Assembly: GCA_951406725.2 (NCBI GenBank)
Contig: OX597815.1
Coordinates: forward strand, 149,668,001 to 149,732,000
DNA from: Octopus vulgaris
Lineage: Eukaryota
Reading direction: 5' to 3'
Length of the DNA stretch: 64,000 bases
Shown here: piece after piece, positions 3,783-49,156 of the stretch
Position numbering within the stretch: the stretch's first letter is position 1
Layout of the letters: the number at the start of each line of letters is the position of its first letter
The notes under the pieces: generated by a model
What the model was told of the DNA's origin: nothing
Seen by the model: only the letters and a program-made list of their open reading frames with translations
Databases searched by the model: none
Translations under genes and position numbers: made by a program

Positions 3783-3837
<55 letters not shown>

Positions 3838-3839
<2 letters not shown>

Positions 3840-4319
3840 CGTAAAGTGTACTAGCCATCTGAATGTGGCTAGCCACTGGGGGTGGGTGTTACTGACGCTT
3901 TTAGCCCCAGGAGATCGACGTCACCAGCTGGCCTTAGACACAATTTCTCTGTTCTTATGATATTTGCAAAGGGAGGTCAACCTCCCTCGAAAACCTAAGT
4001 GATACATACGGACTATAGTTTCAAGGTTTTTGCCTCTCGTCAACGCATGGTAAACACCGGTTTTCGATGAAGGAGAGAAAGGCAAAAACCTTGAAACAAT
4101 AGTCCGTATGTATCACTTAGGTTTTCGAGGGAGGATGACCTCCCTTTGCAAATATCATAAGAACACAGACATTGTGTCTAAGGCCAGCTGGTGACGTCGA
4201 TCTCCTGGGGCTAAAAGCGTCAGTAACACCCACCCCCAGTGGCTAGCCACATTCAGATGGCTAGTACACTTTACGTTGTCGAGCGCTTACTGTTTACATC
4301 TCGTTCGGAGATTTATTAA

Positions 4320-4320
<1 letters not shown>
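3838..4320. mobile_element. Foldback PLE-derived element: ~198-bp inverted arms (3838-4035 / 4080-4277), 44-nt spacer, flanked by (TA)n
   Basis: Arms are near-perfect reverse complements; HHR spans the left arm and spacer. Confidence 0.85.
4005..4049 (-). ncRNA. Minimal type I hammerhead ribozyme (U3 variant)
   Basis: Minus: CATGCG-TTGACGA-GAGG-CAAAAA-CCTT-GAAAC-TATA-GTC-CGTATG. Confidence 0.85.
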
Positions 4321-4353
<33 letters not shown>

Positions 4354-4357
4354 TAAT

Positions 4358-4656
4358 GCGTGGAGGCGCAATGTCCGAGTGGTTAGGGCAGCTGACTCGT
4401 GGTTGTAGGATCGCGGTTTCGATTCCCAGACCGCGCATTGTGAGGGTTTATTGAGCGAAAACCCCTAAACCTCCACGATGCTTCGCCAAGGAGTTTTGGT
4501 GAACCCTGCTGTACTCTTTCGCCACAACTCTCTCTCTCTCTCTTTCTTCTGTTGGCCTGCTCGTCATTTGAATGCTAAAATAATGCGAAGCGCATTGAGA
4601 CAAGCGATGTGTGGCAACATCTGTTAGCCTGGTCGGTCACGATGATCACGGTGATA
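4358..4656 (+). mobile_element. tRNA-derived SINE, family 2
   Basis: A-box-like tgtccgagtgg, B-box-like gtttcgattcc; homologous to 13055-13277 and 26893-27201. Confidence 0.85.
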
Positions 4657-4933
4657 TGTTAATGCGAATGAAGCAATTGTTGGAATTTTAAGGTGTCATC
4701 TAAAATTTAAATATTTTCTTCGTACGTATTATTGATTGTTGTCAATACTCCAAAATGCTTGAAATTCAGCATAAGATTCTTGGATATATCTGACATACAC
4801 GAGGATTTATCTGGCACTGGTATTCTAGATACATTCACTGGTATCAGCTGGTTGGAAATTTAAACTTATTCTTTTATATTGTGTGCTTTTTTGGCATATA
4901 CCATGATTTTTTAATCTCATCTTTTCTTTAATA

Positions 4934-7109: not shown

Positions 7110-7898
7110 AGTCATTGCGAGTATAATGACACCCCCTATGAGAACGGACTAGCTGAGCTCGTATAAATAGTAAGCTGTTTGACTGAGACCGGGAGAGATG
7201 AGAAACCGCAGGAAGTTGAAAGGTGTCGTACGTGAGTTCGTGGAGACTCCTGAAATTGTTGAGAACTTGTTATAGTTCGTTGAGAGTTGTTTTGGATTGG
7301 CTACAGTTGTTGGTGGTCAGCCTGTAATGACATGCATAAGATCTGGTCATCAAATCTAAGTAGAGACTTCAAACTTGAAATCTTCAAAGCCACAGTCGAG
7401 CCAATTCTACTATATGGCTCAAAAAACTGGACGTTATCAAAGAATCTTGAGAGGCGATTGGATGCAACTTACATCTGCCTCCTTATGAGAGCTCAAAATC
7501 TCTCGTGGAAGCGCCATCCAACCAAAATGCAAATATATGGGAAACTACCACCTGTGTCATCTCTTGTGAAAGGTAGGAGATTCCAGTTTGCTGGACATTG
7601 TTGTAGAGCTGAAAAAGAGGTAATTTCTACTCTTCTCCTCTGGAAGCCATCTACCCGCAATACCAGAGGGCGCACACTCTCCTACCCTGATGTAATCTCC
7701 AGGGATACAGGCATCCTGCAACAGGACCCCCGTAATGCCATGATGGACCGTAAAGTTTGGCGTAGCATGGTAAACTCCATTGTCTCGACCACGGTCGAAC
7801 AATGATGATGATGATGGGAATAAATCAAGTGGAGACAGTTGGTGACCACTCCGTTCCGTGGTGTTGAATATCACACTGTATTAGTGCACGACACTACA
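7110..7898 (+). repeat. 5' LTR (interrupted by RTE insertion)
   Basis: Aligns with 11200-11473 on both sides of 7313-7816; TATAAATAG box; ends cacgacactaca. Confidence 0.8.
7313..7816 (+). mobile_element. RTE-clade LINE 3' fragment with (TGA)n tail
   Basis: ORF 7287-7805: VEPILLYGS..WTL...RRFQFAGHCCR...MDRKVWR; stop followed by (TGA)n. Confidence 0.88.
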
Positions 7899-7996: not shown

Positions 7997-10900
7997 ATGG
8001 AAAACCTATTACAGATGCAAAAGCAACAGCAGCAGCAGCAACCGGATTTGTACCAACAAGTACAACATAATCAGTTGCTGGAACTGATGCTGAAGTCGGG
8101 AAGCACCGCAGTTTCATTTTCGCCAGACAGCTTAGCGAATGCTATAATTAAATTTAGTTATAACCAAGAAGCGTGTATAATTTTTTTCCCGGCATACTTC
8201 AGAAGATGCGAAGAAATTTTCTAGGAAGAACGCAAGTGTTGGACAGACAATGAGGAAGTAAGACTACTGTAACAGAAACTAGGTCCTCCAGAACATGAAA
8301 AATACTGCAATTTTATCTTGCATTAAAAAACGAGTAAATTTCTGACTGATGCATGTTTCCAAATTAAGGAAAACGCATCCCAGTATTCAAACCAAAATGA
8401 ACGGTACTTTTGGCAGCGATAAAACAAATTAGACACACTAGAAAATTGGACTCATCTAAAAAGTGAACTATGCAAAATAGACAGTTCCAACTGTGTGCAT
8501 TAAAAAGAAAAAAGTAACAGCATAACAAAATCAGGGTGTGTGCCGATTTTTCCTCTGGCTTGAATGAATATCTGAAAATGTCTTACTATCTGCTTCCTGC
8601 TCCGGAGGATATTTTTCCGAAGTTAAATGGGGAAAGATATTTTTGAAACTGGGTCCCTCCGATATGTACCTACAAATTAGAGTAGACAAGGAATGATCAA
8701 AATACCAAACCGTCAATACGCATAAAGGACTATGGCAACTTGGGCAAGTGTCTTCTAATATAGCCTCGGGCCGACCAAAGGCATGTGAGTGGATTGGTAG
8801 ACGGAAACTGAAAGAAATCCATCGTATATATACATATATGTCTGTGTTTGTCCCCACCTACCATCGCTTGACAGCCGATGTTGGTGTGGTTATATCCCCG
8901 TATGTTAGCCGTTCGCCAAAAACGTCCGATAAAATAGGCACTAGGCTTACAAAGATTAAGTTTTGGGGTCGATTTGTTCGACTAAAGGCGGTGCTCCAGC
9001 ATGGCCGCTGCCAAAATGACTGAAACAAGTAAAAGAATAACAGATTACCATTTGGTCAAAAGGTCGCACCTGAAACTTTTCAACTTTTAGCGGACTATGA
9101 ATTAGCAATTCCATACCTGGATGATATATTAATTAAAATTGAATCCCATAATCAGCATGTCGAGCATGTAAAATGTGTTTTTGAAAAAATAAGAGATTAC
9201 CTTTTCCGACTGAGTGCTGTAAAATGTCAATTATTCTTACATAAAATTATGTATTTAGGACAAATTATCGAAAGGAATGAACGAAAACTGGACCCGTCGA
9301 GGACGGATACAATTAAAAATATGCCTGCTCCAACTAATATAATGGCCTTACAAGCTTTTCGACGTCTAGCAAATTATTATCAAAATTATATGTCAAATAT
9401 GCATTAATTGATAGTTCCACTAAATAATTTTCTAAAACGTATGTGAAGTGGAATCGGTTAATTAATTGCCAAAAGGCGTTTGACAATATTAATAAAAATA
9501 CCAATATTCGATTTGTCGCTGGCTCATTTCGATCATGTAGCGGAGATTTTGTAGCTTCTGACGCTTCTGAATTCGGCATAGGAGCAGTAAGGCAACACAA
9601 ATTTAAAAAGCATAATATGAAGGCGATGATTCATGCCTCACGTTCTCTGACACTGGTAGAGAAAAATTATAGTCAAATAGAGAATGTAACGTTAGCGATC
9701 ATTTTTCCCGTGGATAAATTTCACAGATATGTGAACCATAGAAATCTTCAGCTACAAACTGATAACTGACCATTATTACCAATTTTGGGGATCGAAGAAA
9801 GGAATTCCTACCCATACTGCAAATCGGTTATAACTCTGGCGTACGATATTGTTGAATTGCGACTTTAAGATGGACTATATAACATCCAAGATGTTAGGCC
9901 ATGCGGATTGTTTATCAAGGCCAATACAAAACAATACAGAACTATTCGAAGCTACCGTTATTTCCACGTTGCGAGCGGAAAATGAAATAAAAGATATTTT
10001 GTATGACGTCATACGGAAGCTGCCACTAGCTGTTGAAGATATGAAAATAAAATCGGAGAATGACAAATTCATTGCAAAGATGTAAAAAACGTTCAAGGTA
10101 AAAGAAAACATTTTTCTTTGCGTGATAATTTGTTGATGTACGCTCAAAGAGTTTAGTGTCAGTCGTAATACAAAAGCGTGTATTAAGTCAATTCCATTAG
10201 TAATGAGGAGTTATGTGTATTGGCCTACTATGGACCGTGTTATTGAACAATTGGCGAAATCCTGCAGAGGGTGTGCTCTCGCAGCAAAGACACCACCAGT
10301 GAAATTCAAATCGCGACCAGATAATTCGTGGTCCATGCTACAGAGAGATTTTGCTGAACCGGTCAACGGCTCGTATTACCTGATCTTAGTAGACAGCAAA
10401 TATGTAATGTCAGTTAACCAAACACGAAGGTAACAATAAAATTCCATCCCGAACTTTTTGCGCAATACGGTGTTCAGGATACGATAGTATCGGCTAACGG
10501 AACGCAGTTTTCAGTGTATGAATGAAAAGCTTACTGCGAGAGGTATACAATTAATCGCTTCTCTATTACGCCGTACCACCCAAGATCAAATGGGTAAGCA
10601 GAATGTTTCGTAGACACATTTACGCCAGCACTAAAACATGTGGATAGCGCATTGATGCAGCACTAACTCAGTATTTAAGGGTTTGCAGGGTAACGCCTAA
10701 CCCGAACACATGTTCAGGCACGTCGCCAGCAGAACTAATGTTAGCCCGGGAAATATAATCAGTTTTTGATAAAATATTACCAACAAAATCAGCTTATAGG
10801 GAAACCCAAGAAACACAACAAAGTATTTTCATTTGGGAGATAAAGTTCATTTCAAAATATATGAGAAAGGAGGACAAAGTTAGGAGGACGGTATAGTGAC

Positions 10901-26892: not shown

Positions 26893-27201
26893 TATCATGT
26901 GATCACGTGACCGACAAGTCTATCAGATATTGCTACACATCGTAGGTCACAATGCGCTTCGCATTGTTTTAGCCTTCAAATGATGCCACCCCGCTGGCTA
27001 AGCGAGCAGGCAAACAGAAGAAAGAGTGAGAGAAAGTTGAGGCGTAAGAGTACAGCAAGGATCGCCACCATCCCCTGCCGGAGCCTCGTGGAGTTATAAG
27101 TGTTTTCGCTCAATAAATACTCACAAAGCCCGGTCTGGCAATCGAAACCGCTATCGTACGATCGCGAGTCCGCTGCCCTAACCACTGGGACATGCGTCTC
27201 T
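26893..27201 (-). mobile_element. SINE family 2
   Basis: Homology to 4358-4656. Confidence 0.88.
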
Positions 27202-27230: not shown

Positions 27231-27596
27231 TGAAGTATAGTTGCCACATAAATGTGGCTTACCACTAAGGCTAGATGCTACTGTAGCTTGCAGCCCCAGG
27301 AGAACATCTTCTCCAACTTGTTATTGACACACTTTCTGCGCCCCATCACTGTTTGCAAAGGGAAGCCTTTTTTTCATCGTCGACCTGACGTGATACGCAC
27401 GGACCCGGGTTTCTGAATATTTAGCCAGCGTCAGCGCATGACAGTCAGAAAGTGTGTCAATAGCCAGCTGGAAATGATGTTCTCTTGGGGCTACAAGCTA
27501 CAGTAGCATACCCCCTTAGTGGTGAGCCACATTTAAGTGGCAAAATACTTCACATCGTCGTGCATCTACTGTTTATACCTCGTTCAGAGATATATT
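27231..27596. mobile_element. Foldback PLE-derived element related to 3838-4320 (arms 27231-27338 / 27446-27552)
   Basis: Inverted arms; colinear homology with the 3838 element including the tactgttta..ctcgttc.gagat.tatt end; between TA and CA/TA tracts. Confidence 0.82.
27396..27440 (-). ncRNA. Minimal hammerhead ribozyme, A9C variant (probably impaired)
   Basis: Minus: CATGCG-CTGACGC-TGG..TCA-GAAAC-CCGG-GTC-CGTGCG. Confidence 0.7.
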
Positions 27597-27629
27597 ACAC
27601 ACACACACACACACATACACACACACACA

Positions 27630-41544: not shown

Positions 41545-43205
41545 AAAATACTACCAAGGGAACAAATAGGATGTACGAAGAAGTCTCAGGGTACCAAGGA
41601 TCACTTGGTCATCGATAAAACAGTTTTGAGGCATTGTAAATATCATCATACAAACATGTCTATGGCTTGGACTGATTTAAGAAGGCATATGATATGATCG
41701 TTGAATGCCTACAGATGTGTCGTGTTGCTGACAACATCACAAATCTTCTGGTGCATAGCATGAAAGAGTGGAAAGCCAAATAGTACTCAAGTAATGTATT
41801 CCTTGGAGAAGTTAATATTAAAAAGGGAATCTTCCAAGTTGACTTCTTTTCCACATTACTTTTTGTAATTGCGCTTATACCCATGATAATGACACTTAGG
41901 AAAGTTAAGATGGGTTACCGATGTGTGAAGAAAGGCCAACTATTGAACCGTTTTCTGCTTATGGATGACCTGAAATTGTTTCGGAAATCTGAAAAACAGA
42001 CTGCTTCCTTAAGCAAAACAGTCCTGAAGTGTGGTAGGAACAGCGGTATGGAATTTGGGATTACCAAATGTTCAGTACTTAATATGAAAAGGGGGAAGAA
42101 AGAACCTGCAGAGGATTGCGACTGCAATCAGGAAATACCATGGGTGAACACTACCGTAGTGGGTATAGATATTTAGGGATTTTTGAGCTGGATGACATTC
42201 TAAACAAAGAGATGAAAGTCAAGGTCAGCGAGGCGTATCAAAAAGGGTGAAGGGGGTATTGAAATCCAACCAGAATACAAAAATATGGATTACCGCAATG
42301 AATATTAGGGCAGTTACGTTGGTCAGATATTGTACGTACATCCTCAAATTAACTATGGAGGAAATATCAACACTGCATAGAAACACGAGAAAGTTAATGA
42401 CGCTGCATGGGGCGCTACACCCAAAAGCAAACGTAAACAGACTGTATATGAAAAGAAAGAATGGTAGCAGAGGACTAATTAGTATAGACCATTGTATAAG
42501 GAGGAAAGGGGAACGTTTCCCGAGCATTTGATAAATAGTGATGAAGACCTGCTGCAATATGCTGAGAAAGATATGGGTGTAAATGCAGATGAAATGAATG
42601 GCATGGAAGCGTTTAACGATGGAGCTGAGAAGAGAAAAGAAGACCATCTTGAAATGAGAATGCATGGACAGTTTGAAAAGGAACACACAAGTAGTTAAGC
42701 ATCGTTGGCATGGCTTGAGCGAGGAGATTTGAAACGTACCACCGAAAGCCTGAACATTGCTGCATAAGACCAAGCCCTCGCTATCAATTCAGTGAAGTAC
42801 AATATCTATAAAACTTCTGACACCCACAAATGCAGACTCTGTGGAAAAAGTGTGGAAAATATGACCCACTTGGTAAGTGGATGTGAGAGCCTTGCCCAAA
42901 AAGAATACAAACGCTGCCACGATAAAGTGTGTGTGTATATATTCATTGGCTTTTATGCCGTAAATATCAATATGAAGTAACAGAAAACTGGTAATAGCAT
43001 GTACCAAGTAATGTTATGCAGGAGGATGGAAAAGTAACGGTACTCTGGGACTAAGATTTTCAGATCGATCGTGTAATCGAACAACGTCGGCCGAATTGAA
43101 AGTGGAAATGGCAAGACTGTATGGAATGCGAGAAGATAACGTAAAAGTGATACCAGTGGTGACCGCAGCGTTGGGCTCAATCCCATTGAAACTTAAAGAC
43201 ATCTT
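41545..43205 (+). mobile_element. R4/Dong-like retrotransposon pseudogene (RT to RLE), followed by (TAA)n
   Basis: EQIGC..GTKDHLVID, LLMDDLKLF, LHPKANVNRLY..RGL, CRLC..HLVSGC..RCHD, IPVVTAALG. Confidence 0.9.
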
Positions 43206-43415: not shown

Positions 43416-45920
43416 TGCACACACCACCTTACCAGCATGGAAGTGCGACAAATAACGCAATAGAAAGATGCTCGAAACTATGAGAATGAAGGAAAATAAT
43501 AGTGGTCATAAGGATGATGATGAACGTTACCCTACCTCAGTTGATGAGACAGGAGTTTCCGAAGGAACTCTGGTTGTAACAGCAAAAATGAAGCTGGACC
43601 TTTAAGGAAAGGCCTCTCGGTCGGCAGTGGTTCAGTAAAGATGCAGAATGACCACAGCTGTTATCATAATACAGCTTCAGCAGATAATAAAGAGGAGGAT
43701 GTCGACCAGCGAAGAAACCAGTATAGTGATGCAGTGCTACCTAGAAAGTGAACCTAAAGAAAGGGCTACAGAAAACGGATGTTAACGCTATGAGTAGAGA
43801 AGGTATGTATAAAGTCACTGAGCAAAGATCAGTAGATTAATCTAATGCTATTAGGAGAAAAAAGTGGATGACAGAAGTGCAAGTAGAAGAGACCACAAGA
43901 GAAGTGCAAAAGAAGGTCCAAGCAGTAGGAAAGACAAACAACAACGTAAGAGATACAGCTCAAACCAAAGAAGAACCTAAACGAAACAATAACAATAGCG
44001 CTACTAACAAGGAAGGGACAAAAGGCACCAGCGACTTAAGTGATTTGAGTAAGGAATATTTGAAGATTTTAGATGAGTTTCAGGAAGTAATGAGTAAAGA
44101 CGTTACGAAAAAGATTGCCAGCTGTAAAAGCCATCAACAGAAGGAAGCTGCTAGAAATGAGCAGGAAAGTAGATTTTGTTATCTGTAGGGGACACTATCT
44201 TATTGATCTATGCAGGAGGGTTAGTAGTCGCCAGAAGATTATATATCTCACAGGGAAAGACTAAATAATGGCAAATGTAGAAAAGGATTCTACAAAATAA
44301 ATTGAAGACTGTATGACAACATCTGTGTAAAATAGATGCAAATTTTCCCTAGAGAAGTGCTTCTTAGTCAAAGAAAAAGGATTTAGGACAGTGTTAGAAG
44401 AGTGGAAACTGCGTATGACAGCCGTAGCAGGCAAGCACTCCAGATATCAATAAATTATAGATCAGTATCAACAAAATAGATTATTTGAGACAAACAAGAG
44501 ATTTTATTACCAAATAAGCATCGGTGAAAGAAGTACTGAAGATGAGAAACCTGATACAGACGAAGCTAGAAAGTTCTGGAGTAACATTTGGGATAAGCCA
44601 GTGAATCATAATGGAGATGCAGTATGGTTAAAGGAAGTGAGAGAGGAAGTAGTGAGTGAGAAGCAGCCAGATCTAAGAATAACTATTGCATTAATGAGTA
44701 AAGCGTTAGGAAAAATGCCGAATTGGATGGGCCTAGGACCGGATTTAGTTCAAGACATTTAGTAGTATACATGGGGGGGGGGGGATGAGAGAAGAATTTA
44801 GAATTACGTTAATGTGGGAATAATACCAGATCGGAAGACTAGAGTGGGGACAATACTCTTGAATGATAAGAGTAAGGGTAATACGGCTAGCAATTGTAGA
44901 CCAGGCACTTGCTTGTTATTAGTGTGGAAGTTGTTAGCAGGAATGCCTTGAGAAAGCATTTACGATCACATTGACAACCGGAATTTACTAACAGAAGTTC
45001 AGAAAGGTTGCAGGAAGAAGACTAGAGGAACGCATGGTTTATTATATAGACAAAGCAGTTCTAAATGAAATAAACCCTAGACTGAAAATTTAACAATAGC
45101 ATGAAAGGATTATAAGAAAACCTATCACATGATCCAATACTCGTAGATAAATGAATGTGTGAATGTTTGAGTATGCTTAGTATAGCAGATAACATAAAAG
45201 GATTAATCAGCTTTAGTATGAAGAAATGGAAAGTAGATCTCTACTAAGGTGATACATTCTTATGGATTGTTAATATCCAAAGAGGAATTTTCTAGGGGTA
45301 CTCGTTGATCCCTTTTTATATTTGTCGTATGTCTCATCCCTTTCAGTTGAATATGAAGGAAGGCAAAGGCGGGATATCAGTTCAGAAATAGTAAGGGGAA
45401 GATTAACCATTTGCTCTACATGGATGATATGAATAAGTTTAGTAAGTATAAAAAAGAGACAGATTCCTTAATACACACCTTAAGACTCTTCAGCAAAGAT
45501 AGAGGCATAGAGTTTGACATAGATAAACATGCAATATCAGTCATGAGAAGAGGACAGGTAGTCAACATTGATGGCCAGACATCAAAATCATTGAAAGGAG
45601 ATAGTTATAAGCATCTAAGAGTATTAGAATCTGACAAAGTACTAACTATAGAAATGGAAACGAAAATTGAAAAGGAGCGCTTCAGCGGGATGAAGAAGCT
45701 AAAAAGTCAAATTAAATGGCCTGAATCGAGCGAAGGCAGTATTATCACTTCGATACTCAGCAGCTATTATAGATTAGACAAAAGCTGATCTAGTAAAGCG
45801 AGGCAGAAGAACTAGGAAGGATTCAATATGAATGGAGGTCGCCACCCAAGCGCAGAAGTAGCAAGATTATACTTACCTAGAAAGAAAGGTGGAAGAGAAT
45901 TTTATACCATGGAGGATGGA
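43416..45920 (+). mobile_element. R4/Dong-like retrotransposon, N-terminal region through RT, heavily decayed, preceded by (TAA)n
   Basis: VMQCYLES..GYRKRM..VTEQR; FWSNIW; GPD; QKGCRK; LLYMDD; HPSAEVARLYLPRKKGGR. Confidence 0.85.
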
Positions 45921-46834: not shown

Positions 46835-47924
46835 CGGGTAGATAGATAGATAGATAGATAGTTAGATATGTTTCTTTATTAGCCTCACAGGGCTGCACAC
46901 AGACAGAACAAATTACAAGGTAGAGCTTTTCTTTTGGGGGTAAAAAAAGGGGGTTGGTTTTCGATCAAAAGGGATCGTAAAAGAAAAGAAAGAGGACAAA
47001 AAAAAGGGGAGGATTTAAAAAAAAGGGGGGAGAGGGAAAAATAGATAGATAGATAGATAGACAGAGAGAGAGAGAGGAGAGAGAGAGAGAGGGACACTGA
47101 TATATATGTACACGCATACACGCACACGTATATCACGTAGATATGTACGACGCATATATATGTGCGTATAGGTCTATGTATAAATGTATATTCATATTTA
47201 GACTTATAGTTGTTCTTCACAATATATGGAATGCAGGCGGCTATTAATGCACTCTGCATGCTATATGCCAAAACAAGCGGAAATAAGGCAGCCATTTTTG
47301 ATTGACCTAATACTAAATCATTCTTCTTAGTTCACAAAGATACAAATATGTGACTTGTGGTCCATGTGATGAGATCAATCTTTTAAGCTACCTTTATGTG
47401 CAAATATTGAATATAGATTTCTTCATTCGAATTAATATAAAATAAGTGTATATTTTGTACAGCCAAATCCTATAAAGCTAAAAGTTTAAAGCCATACCTT
47501 TAAATCTATTAGATTTAAAAAGTCGTCGAGCTGAGCTGGACCAAACTAAACCTAACGCAATACATTACTTTCGCATCGGAAAAGGGAATACTTTTCATTC
47601 TGAGCCACATGGACAGCCTATGCATGTCAGACAGTTCTCTCTACGACTTAGGAATTCATTTAAACTCTTGAGGTACATTATACTTTCAGATATCGACGTA
47701 GATTTACAGCCTTTGAATTTATCATTTCTCCAGCTTATTACGGTTTGGGAATAATCAATTTTTTTTCATTATCTTAACTATAGTTGCTGTTTTTTATCTC
47801 TCGACCAGCCCGAATAGAAAATGTCTTAGATGTTGTCTCCTATTTATTTATGTCAGTAGCGTGGAATTTGAGAAATGTATACATGAGGCTTTTAGCAGAT
47901 CATATAAAAACATTATCGCTGTGT

Positions 47925-48747
47925 ATTAATAGTTATCGCCAAGATACCATGGCAGTCCAGAAAAATAGGACGAATGCTGCCTTTGATTTCTAATTCTCTC
48001 TAAAGGAGACGACGGCAGCAGTACTGGATATTAATAGTTATCGCCAAGCTAACATAGCAACCCAGAAAAATAGGACGAATGCTGCCGTTGATTAGCTCCA
48101 AGACCAACTCTTCGAAGGATTACTTACTTAAATTCAGTGGAAGGATTATTTACCTAAATTCAGTGGAAACTCTCCTTTTCGATGGTTATAATAGATAGAG
48201 GTTTGTGTATCACATAGCTAGCTAGAGGCGATGGCCTCTTCGAGCTAAACAACGGCAGCATTCGTCCTATTTTTCTGGACTGCCATGTTAGCTTGGCGAT
48301 AACCATTAATATCCAGTACCGCTACCGTAGTCTCCTTTAGAGAGAATTAGAAAAAATGATATTATTATTATTATTTTTTTTTTTTTTTTGTTTTGGAAAA
48401 CCAGTGGATGTATTCCACTGAATTTAAGTAAATAATCGTTCGAACAGTCGGTCGGCAGCGACGCCTCCTGGGTTCGTCTACTCCACATTGATAAGAGGCA
48501 AACACCTTGAAACTAGTCTGTGGATGCCAGACCAGCAAAGGGAAGCTGCTGATTTCACCTGTTCGAAGGTTATAATAGACAGAGGTTTGTGTGTTACATA
48601 GCTAGCTAGAGGCGATCCCCTCTTCAAGTTAATCAACGGCAGCATTCGTCCTAATTTTTCTGGACTGTCATATTAGCTTGGCGATAACTATTAATATCCA
48701 GTACCACCACAGTAGTCTCCTCTAGAGAGAACTAGAAATAATGATAT
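47925..48747. mobile_element. Rearranged array of PLE pLTR segments (minus-strand pieces 47925-48168, plus-strand copies 48178-48362 and 48400-48747)
   Basis: Block ggcagcattcgtcctatttttctggac..ttggcgataac occurs four times in two orientations; HHR at 48482. Confidence 0.82.
48482..48524 (+). ncRNA. Minimal hammerhead, G8A variant (likely inactive), same family as 4005-4049
   Basis: TCCACA-TTGATAA-GAGG-CAAACA-CCTT-GAAAC-TA-GTC-TGTGGA. Confidence 0.72.
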
Positions 48748-49156
48748 TTCTATTAATGCTGTGCATGCGTATATATTGAGAAAATAAATGGCTGAGCAAC
48801 ATCGACGAATGAAAGACAGAAATATGATGGAATTCATAAGTTTAACTCTGGCTGATAGTCTCTAATTTCTATTTAATTTAACTACTAAATGACATTTAAC
48901 CTGACAACAAATCTGATAGCACTAAATTACATGAATCTACACATTTGTTTCGTAGCAATACTTTTTTGAATTGTATTTGAAATTCCGTTATATGACACGA
49001 TGATTTCATCGCATTTCGCTTAAACAAGACAAGTTATAAAAACAGATTTAGGACAAACTAGTATTTCCTTATTGGATTGTTCTCGTCTGTTCTTTCATCC
49101 AATTATTTGCAGTTGAAAATCATGGAAGTGCTTTTGACAGAATAATCCCCGTTAGT

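Follow-up and report, generated by a model that had tools for sequence, protein, structure and literature searches.

A covarying RNA domain downstream of the hammerhead in non-autonomous Penelope-like elements of Octopus vulgaris

Hammerhead-bearing repeats in the Octopus vulgaris genome carry, downstream of the hammerhead, a real and apparently undescribed covarying RNA domain; the elements belong to a known kind, and the idea that the domain is a second ribozyme is unsupported. A preliminary description of the 64,000-nt stretch analysed here (the window) had reported six copies of a multi-stem motif about 70 nt past a hammerhead. All six lie where it placed them, and the motif starts 70–71 nt after the cut site (4104 on the + strand, 4011 and 27402 on the − strand, 48518 on the + strand). 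Its broader proposal, a conserved, covarying non-coding RNA structure as the second module of a hammerhead retroelement, is supported, and on comparison of aligned copies the domain is almost certainly a selected RNA structure. Of the three outcomes that it listed as refuting, none came up: covariation is present, Rfam has no match for the motif and the region is not the end of a PLE coding frame. The motif itself is real, but the fold drawn for it is mostly wrong. Among the functions suggested for it, an RT-recognition element is the best reading, and the domain probably acts as a template and initiation platform for a Neptune-type Penelope-like element (PLE) RT borrowed from autonomous elements.

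The searched assembly (2.8 Gb, 227 contigs) is microsatellite-rich. The three loci of the preliminary description represent repeat families A, B and C. A first look at the genome gave about 2000 candidates for each of them, far above chance, of which 40 were scored per search; four further families, D, E, F and G, were recovered from flanks. The motifs of the seven families are 55–77% identical to each other. Family majority sequences, built from 13–30 copies each, define a non-coding unit of about 340–355 nt. Read from its 5′ end, a small hairpin leads into a predicted rod of about 100 bp, tipped by a type I hammerhead, after which come the motif and a tail. The hammerhead is minimal, with a 1-bp helix III and a palindromic loop, and was read in families A–F, with CUGANGA or UUGA variants of the core, the family G majority sequence not being resolved that far 5′. 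The real hammerheads of these units are undetected by Rfam. Within the first ~25 nt of the units, the 5′ hairpin carries an initiator-like TCAG(T/C)G in four of the five families with that end resolved, and the arms of the predicted rod around the hammerhead are matched to each other in a family-specific manner (window 4040-4076 and 27345-27445). Copies occur singly, in tandem (spacing about 343–355 nt at loci L017, L080, L082, L149 and L164) and as head-to-head inverted pairs. In 400 kb of unselected DNA there were nine matches at E<0.01, at five insertion sites, which extrapolates to roughly tens of thousands of insertion sites in the genome.

These units are non-autonomous PLEs, or non-LTR retrozymes, an already known class, and their mobility is very likely PLE-driven. 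The motif is not the end of a PLE coding frame, as the preliminary description had considered it might be: the A–D cores hold one to nine stops in every one of the six frames, and tblastn with PLE proteins, RT and GIY-YIG included, found no match anywhere in the 64-kb window. None of the sequencing runs listed as containing the unit was an RNA run, and contigs of four runs cover it, although such contigs carry no strand, end or expression information. A pattern scan of a metagenome collection matched 120 stretches, and the 80 of these with flanks gave no match to our covariance model, so there is no sign of the domain outside this lineage in that collection.

Across the seven families the domain adopts a common predicted fold that consists of hairpin H2, stem H3 with a 4 × 3 internal loop, long-range helix H4, hairpins H5 and H6 and tail hairpin H7. 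H2 uses the GTGT of the motif. H3 is capped by the inner hairpin for which compensatory changes had been proposed; this hairpin is real, with double changes (GGAGA/TCTCC, AGAGG/CCTCT), as is the GCCA..TGGC hairpin of the same proposal. H4 joins the segment after H3 to the tail and encloses H5 and H6; H7 belongs to the tail. The covariance model finds seven motif copies in the window, including one absent from the preliminary list (47994-48129, − strand). The copies, and the parts of the first tailed one, are as follows.

3838..4076, − strand: family A copy, inverted, with an intact minimal hammerhead (cut after 4011) and the full motif; tail-less, with its short 3′ end against (TA)n
4077..4321, + strand: family A copy, 5′-truncated in the hammerhead (3′ half only, cut position after 4104), with motif and tail; long 3′ end against (TA)n
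4162-4166 with 4174-4178, + strand: H2 hairpin, taking up the GTGT; here the first two of the 5′ letters carry mutations
4182-4185 with 4209-4212, + strand: H3 outer stem
4186-4189 (AGCU) and 4206-4208 (UGG), + strand: H3 internal loop
4190-4194 with 4201-4205, + strand: H3 inner stem
4221-4227 with 4286-4292, + strand: H4 long-range helix, closing the junction that holds H5, H6 and the short 3′ end; its 3′ strand lies in the tail
4230-4242 and 4246-4261, + strand: H5 and H6, inside the H4 junction
4262..4277, + strand: single-stranded A/C/U-rich linker, with the short 3′ end after about 4277; putative RT start site 1 (by PMC11167929)
4278..4321, + strand: tail of about 45 nt with the H4 3′ strand, H7 (4298-4312) and the long 3′ end; putative start site 2
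27231..27438, − strand: family B copy with hammerhead (cut after 27402) and motif; tail-less, short end
27446..27597, + strand: family B copy, 5′-truncated, with motif and tail; long end
47924..48103, − strand: two inverted family C pieces, 47986-48103 with tail and 47924-47988 to the short end; absent from the preliminary list
48170..48363, + strand: family C copy, 5′-truncated, with motif and tail
48483..48752, + strand: family C copy with hammerhead (cut after 48518), motif and tail; H4 is decayed at 4/7 pairs in this copy

Half of the six copies first reported (those beginning at 4077, 27446 and 48170 on the + strand) are thus 5′-truncated and without an intact hammerhead of their own. A tRNA-headed SINE adjoins the A and B elements in the (TA)n tract (4352-4700, + strand; 26900-27200, − strand); it has no similarity to the motif, and ARAGORN gives no call on it. 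Elsewhere in the window, decayed LINE-type and LTR-type RT fragments can be recognised by eye from translations (597-2968 on the − strand, 7284-7805, 9033-9769, 41784-42531 and 45357-45788).

Covariation supports the fold in the A–D alignment, in families held out from the model and in a table of one sequence per family. RNAalifold, unprompted, returned H2–H7 from a single MAFFT alignment of 20 real A–D copies (the five closest to the majority in each family, from 17–32 full-length copies), as did folding of the family sequences; 97.0% of 600 cells are paired and 7/30 pairs are double-changed, compared with 30–46% paired in slid controls. A covariance model built on A–D alone finds the held-out families E, F and G with 54–133 bits for tailed copies, and in the resulting alignment, which is fitted to the model and includes tail-less copies, 92.2% of cells are paired and 25/30 pairs double-changed. 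With one hand-registered sequence per family, none of the 25 pairs of H2, H3, H4 and H6 is broken in any of the seven families, and 14 of them change on both sides, although the seven families share one ancestor, so that double changes are not independent of phylogeny and such counts are not probabilities. H4 is the longest Watson-Crick helix between its two segments in every family (7–9 bp), a length matched by 5–62 of 2000 shuffles per family; two cross-family H4 combinations pair as long as or longer than the within-family ones, the A, E and F strands being alike. On a plain MAFFT alignment of the seven families, RNAalifold gives H2, H3 and H6 and misses H4, because the H4 strands are shifted there. 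H5 is weak and is absent in family G. The H3 internal loop varies among families (AGCU/UGG, AACU/UGG, AUCA/UAG), and conserved unpaired letters lie in the H3 loop (A.C/U.G), in a GAUG loop and in a YRUU loop. By eye, the GAUG loop and the loop of H6 could form a kissing contact in five or six families, without double change.

On the same 20-copy alignment, the 3/4-way junction of the preliminary description pairs 83.0% of 460 cells, against 97.0% for H2–H7. Its closing stem, GTGT with GTAC/ATAC, is 72.5% paired, GTGT being taken by H2 instead; its AGCYA/TGGYNA stem (P2) is 75% paired, with 5–6 bp in A and B but only 2–3 bp in C, D, E, F and G. The long stem fares unevenly, with 80% paired and one pair at 50%, yet a trace of 5–6 bp with G-U persists in all seven families, Watson-Crick only in A and G. 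Family C had been misregistered: TGGCGA there forms the 3′ arm of the last hairpin, and GTAC belongs to the tail. The change noted in the 8-mer palindrome corresponds to the C-G to U-A pair of H3, and the coordinates given for the motif are right except that the 3′ strand of H4 falls outside them. Single-copy folding at those coordinates was uninformative (z +0.06 to −2.41, with one of five sense copies below −2).

Inserted copies end in two discrete ways. BLAST gave 300 matches of more than 60 nt in loci of the seven families; 92 of them stop at a short end, 194 at a long end (read-through into a tandem unit included) and 14 elsewhere; the short:long ratio is biased, as the queries favoured tailed copies. 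The short end lies in the unpaired stretch that links H6 to the 3′ strand of H4, inside the H4-closed junction, and the long end follows about 45 nt later, just behind H7. The outer ends of 71 inverted insertions were long+short in 58, long+other in 11, long+long in two and short+short in none. TATATA lies within the flank of 51/92 short ends and 60/194 long ends, against 531/5000 random places. The short end is sharp within each family, no letters are conserved there across the seven families, and the 5′ ends of copies are spread out and accumulate neither at the hammerhead cut nor in the motif. The copies show the PLE anatomy of an inverted, 5′-truncated partner and a tail at one end only; in PMC8557442 this anatomy is an inverted truncated partner with a 30–40-bp tail at one end. 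The two-end pattern is the Penelope 'tail'. In vitro, a lizard PLE protein uses two internal RT starts that are the two borders of the tail, and needs RNA from +20 to +172, with the first start at +111–118 and about 90 nt upstream of it required (PMC11167929). By these data, the template stretch that the enzyme needs corresponds in position to the motif, and start site 1 falls within the span closed by H4.

Autonomous partners are present in the same genome. A GIY-YIG search gave 148 matches, 16 of them in a 781-aa open frame with an RT and, after a CxxC motif, GIY-YIG at its C terminus, a family that, from this layout, we take to be Neptune-type (PMC8557442). Members of the 781-aa family carry a hammerhead and insert at (TA)n; their two ends are about 38 nt apart, and their tail hairpin, CTCGT..GAG, begins CTCGT as in families A and B. 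Of 15 autonomous 5′ junctions chosen from about three families and some stragglers, 14 were folded, and 11 have a predicted long-range helix over the start codon with a probability of at least 0.97. This helix encloses the short end, its partner letters change together between subfamilies, and its 5′ strand resembles that of H4, although the resemblance is short. H2–H6 themselves were found in pLTR position by the covariance model in none of 45 loci around GIY-YIG matches and none of 35 loci of a second autonomous family; 40 ORF-start regions gave three model matches, all an inserted B element and none in pLTR position. Neither blastn nor the model matched the domain to autonomous pLTRs; the resemblances are short and confined to the tail and the 5′ strand of H4. 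For the families covered by these searches, which were seeded with GIY-YIG and Neptune sequences rather than Penelope- or Poseidon-type ones, the RT thus does not need the domain, and the shared part is the tail region only. In the second abundant family, which is pyrimidine-rich, the hammerhead was seen in 25 of 30 loci, and these have one 3′ end only, at (TA)n.

One B copy is fused to a 900-nt PLE RT fragment through a 3-nt microhomology inside a (TA)n tract (L042:500-1721). The junction is unique (1 of 40 scored matches), and this single case would fit a possible template switch; the RT fragment there is 5′-truncated. Several further features of the autonomous elements were observed. In Neptune-type PLEs the predicted helix, maintained with matched changes in several families, buries the ORF start codon as well as enclosing the tail region (L125:641-830, L438-L441, L449, L451-L467, G000), an arrangement that could couple translation to reverse transcription. 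Canonical PLEs have a single ORF; the young autonomous family has a 479-aa upstream frame, without a Pfam match, overlapping the 781-aa RT-GIY-YIG frame (L125:768-4468, L124, L122), possibly read by frameshift or splicing. At L459:126-784 an inserted family B element stops inside an autonomous pLTR, on the opposite strand and about 10 nt away from the short end of the autonomous element, and a member of the pyrimidine-rich, hammerhead-bearing PLE family lies about 40 kb outside the window (L169-L170, G000:C2).

The covarying domain, which brackets the exact end points of inserted copies, is likely to be a landing pad for a borrowed Penelope-type RT. In the sequence of events that we propose, the unit would be transcribed and its RNA would fold in the cell as the covariation indicates; the PLE protein would bind the domain, nick AT-rich DNA and prime cDNA at both sites, with H4 presenting site 1 and H7 presenting site 2, while H2 and H3 may add a protein-binding or stabilising surface. 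The hammerhead presumably cuts as a dimer and may release monomers or circles.

That the platform serves a PLE-type RT in trans is, in our judgement, the probable explanation. It draws on a fold kept by double changes in seven families and recovered in the held-out E–G, on the two discrete ends with long+short pairing in 58/71 inverted insertions and (TA)n targets, on the two-start behaviour of the PLE protein in vitro (PMC11167929), on autonomous RT + GIY-YIG partners that share the two ends, the target and the CTCGT..GAG tail hairpin, on the long-range helix that brackets the short end in 11/14 autonomous junctions and on the direct fusion of one B copy to a PLE RT fragment. Against it stand the absence of H2–H6 from every autonomous element examined, the shortness of the H4-strand resemblance, the occurrence of the RT fusion in one case of 40 and the behaviour of H4, which is missed on the plain seven-family alignment and has two cross-family pairings as good. 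The fold could instead serve survival of the RNA, or a host protein, by compacting or protecting a hammerhead-released and possibly circular monomer, the RT reading only the tail hairpin and the AT-rich ends. We regard this as rather unlikely, although it would account for autonomous elements without H2–H6 and for a unit predicted to be structured throughout (5′ hairpin and ~100-bp rod), conserved unpaired letters (H3 loop, GAUG, YRUU) would suit any protein, and animal retrozymes accumulate as circular RNAs (PMC7229834). It does not readily explain why, in 7/7 families, H4 finds its partner strand in the tail and exactly surrounds the short end, or why autonomous elements bracket the same end with a long-range helix of their own.

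The other explanations have low probability. It is very unlikely that the domain is a further ribozyme, of a new self-cleaving or ligating kind, responsible for the short 3′ end or for processing of the RNA, and just as little weight goes to H2–H7 being a catalytic RNA of a new class, one cutting or re-joining element RNA at that end. A multi-helix junction with conserved unpaired nucleotides and a short end sharp within each family would be expected of a ribozyme, and the silence of Rfam on the domain is weak evidence because Rfam also missed the true hammerheads. Yet no nucleotide is common to the families at either 3′ end, 5′ ends do not pile up at the short end or in the motif, two RT starts explain the long+short pairing, autonomous elements have the short end without the domain, and the H3 internal loop varies, with no ribozyme pattern matched. 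In a switch, the fold of the preliminary description could be an alternative conformation, or its UGG:YYA part could make a tertiary contact; the long stem does keep 5–6 bp with G-U in 7/7 families, with one double change in G (UAGGG/CCCUA), but P2 fails in 5/7 families, the stem is G-rich with many wobbles and only 2–3 Watson-Crick bp in B, C, E and F, and it overlaps the H3 outer stem, which covaries, so that we hold such a switch to be improbable. A DNA-level internal promoter (Pol III A/B boxes in a tRNA-derived SINE), to which pairing would be secondary, has the least to commend it and is most improbable: the start of H3 does, to our eye, recall the A box of a tRNA D-arm, one letter short, but a strict A box occurs in 0/7 families, a loose one in 2/7 and a full B box in 0/7, ARAGORN finds nothing in the window, and the double changes point to selection on pairing. 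On these counts the units do not qualify as tRNA-derived SINEs, and no tRNA-like head was found.

Comparison with known ribozymes gave the same answer. Rfam had no match for the motif at gathering level, and by E-value only chance matches of microRNA or snoRNA type below threshold (3800-4500 and one locus each of B–G). For twister there was no Rfam match at E<=10 on 3800-4500, nor at E<=1 on one locus each of families B–G. Twister is characterised by a UAA cut loop, two pseudoknots and a GA before T1, and this pattern occurs in 0/7 families on either strand. A by-eye twister mapping (P1-UAA-P2-GC-P3-P4) was dropped because families C–G broke its P2. The resemblance to twister or twister-sister suggested in the preliminary description also does not hold for twister-sister-like RNAs, whose catalytic internal loop has one strand of 5 nt and one of 6 nt, the latter containing CA (PMC11620745), whereas the H3 loop is 4 × 3 nt and has CA only in family G. 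Core patterns for HDV-like, pistol, hatchet and SECIS elements, crude enough to miss divergent members, occur in 0/7 families, again with no Rfam match. Twister-class ribozymes also occur in retroelements, and like them the domain is a multi-helix RNA with an internal loop, but loop sizes and conserved letters are unlike theirs, and there is no sign of a cut site.

As elements, the units closely resemble animal non-LTR retrozymes, for which the use of PLEs has been proposed (PMC7229834) and which a 2026 preprint argues are non-autonomous PLE derivatives (10.64898/2026.07.22.740005). They share the non-coding units of about 300 nt with a type I hammerhead, the occurrence as monomers and tandems and the co-occurrence with autonomous PLEs in the genome; copies here are mostly dispersed monomers or short inverted or tandem sets. 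The available text of the two reports describes no conserved structure beyond the hammerhead and uses no tail signature, and the preprint, in the same portion, samples no mollusc. Our full-text literature search found no description of the fold or of these families, which appear to be undescribed, although the repeats may be catalogued in Repbase/Dfam, or related families in the supplements of the preprint. With Neptune-clade PLEs the units share the minimal hammerhead with its 1–2-bp helix III and palindromic loop, a form thought in metazoan PLEs to act as dimers (PMC4209133), and the inverted 5′-truncated partner, one-end tail and microsatellite target (PMC8557442, PMC4209133); they differ in having no ORF and a tail of ~45–50 nt rather than 30–40 bp (PMC8557442), and the cut site lies about 175 nt from the short end, against ~65–75 nt in the 781-aa autonomous family of this genome. 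The Poseidon-Ac template RNA likewise has two internal starts downstream of a hammerhead that bound the tail, an A/C-rich start region and an AT-rich target, but in the available part of PMC11167929 the needed RNA lies inside the ORF, no covarying fold is defined and the element is of another PLE clade.

In SINE/LINE pairs and elements such as R2, with its 3′ UTR, a folded 3′ RNA domain recruits the RT. The domain described here would likewise be a folded 3′ domain that recruits an RT in trans, but initiation would be internal and at two sites, and most of the fold is not common to the autonomous elements found. A tentative extension, which we think possible though doubtful, is that it is a dedicated, telomerase-RNA-like recruitment domain, invented by the parasite to out-compete the autonomous template for the telomerase-related RT. 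Were the catalytic reading true, these retroelements would be the first to combine a hammerhead with another, unrelated ribozyme. For the copying of protein-less hammerhead retrozymes, the help of PLEs has been inferred from co-occurrence and pLTR similarity. The families described here show the PLE tail itself, the mechanistic footprint of PLE reverse transcription, and add a covariation-defined RNA fold around the RT start sites. With young autonomous elements in the same genome and a domain of only 150 nt, RNA recognition by the telomerase-related PLE RT becomes directly testable.
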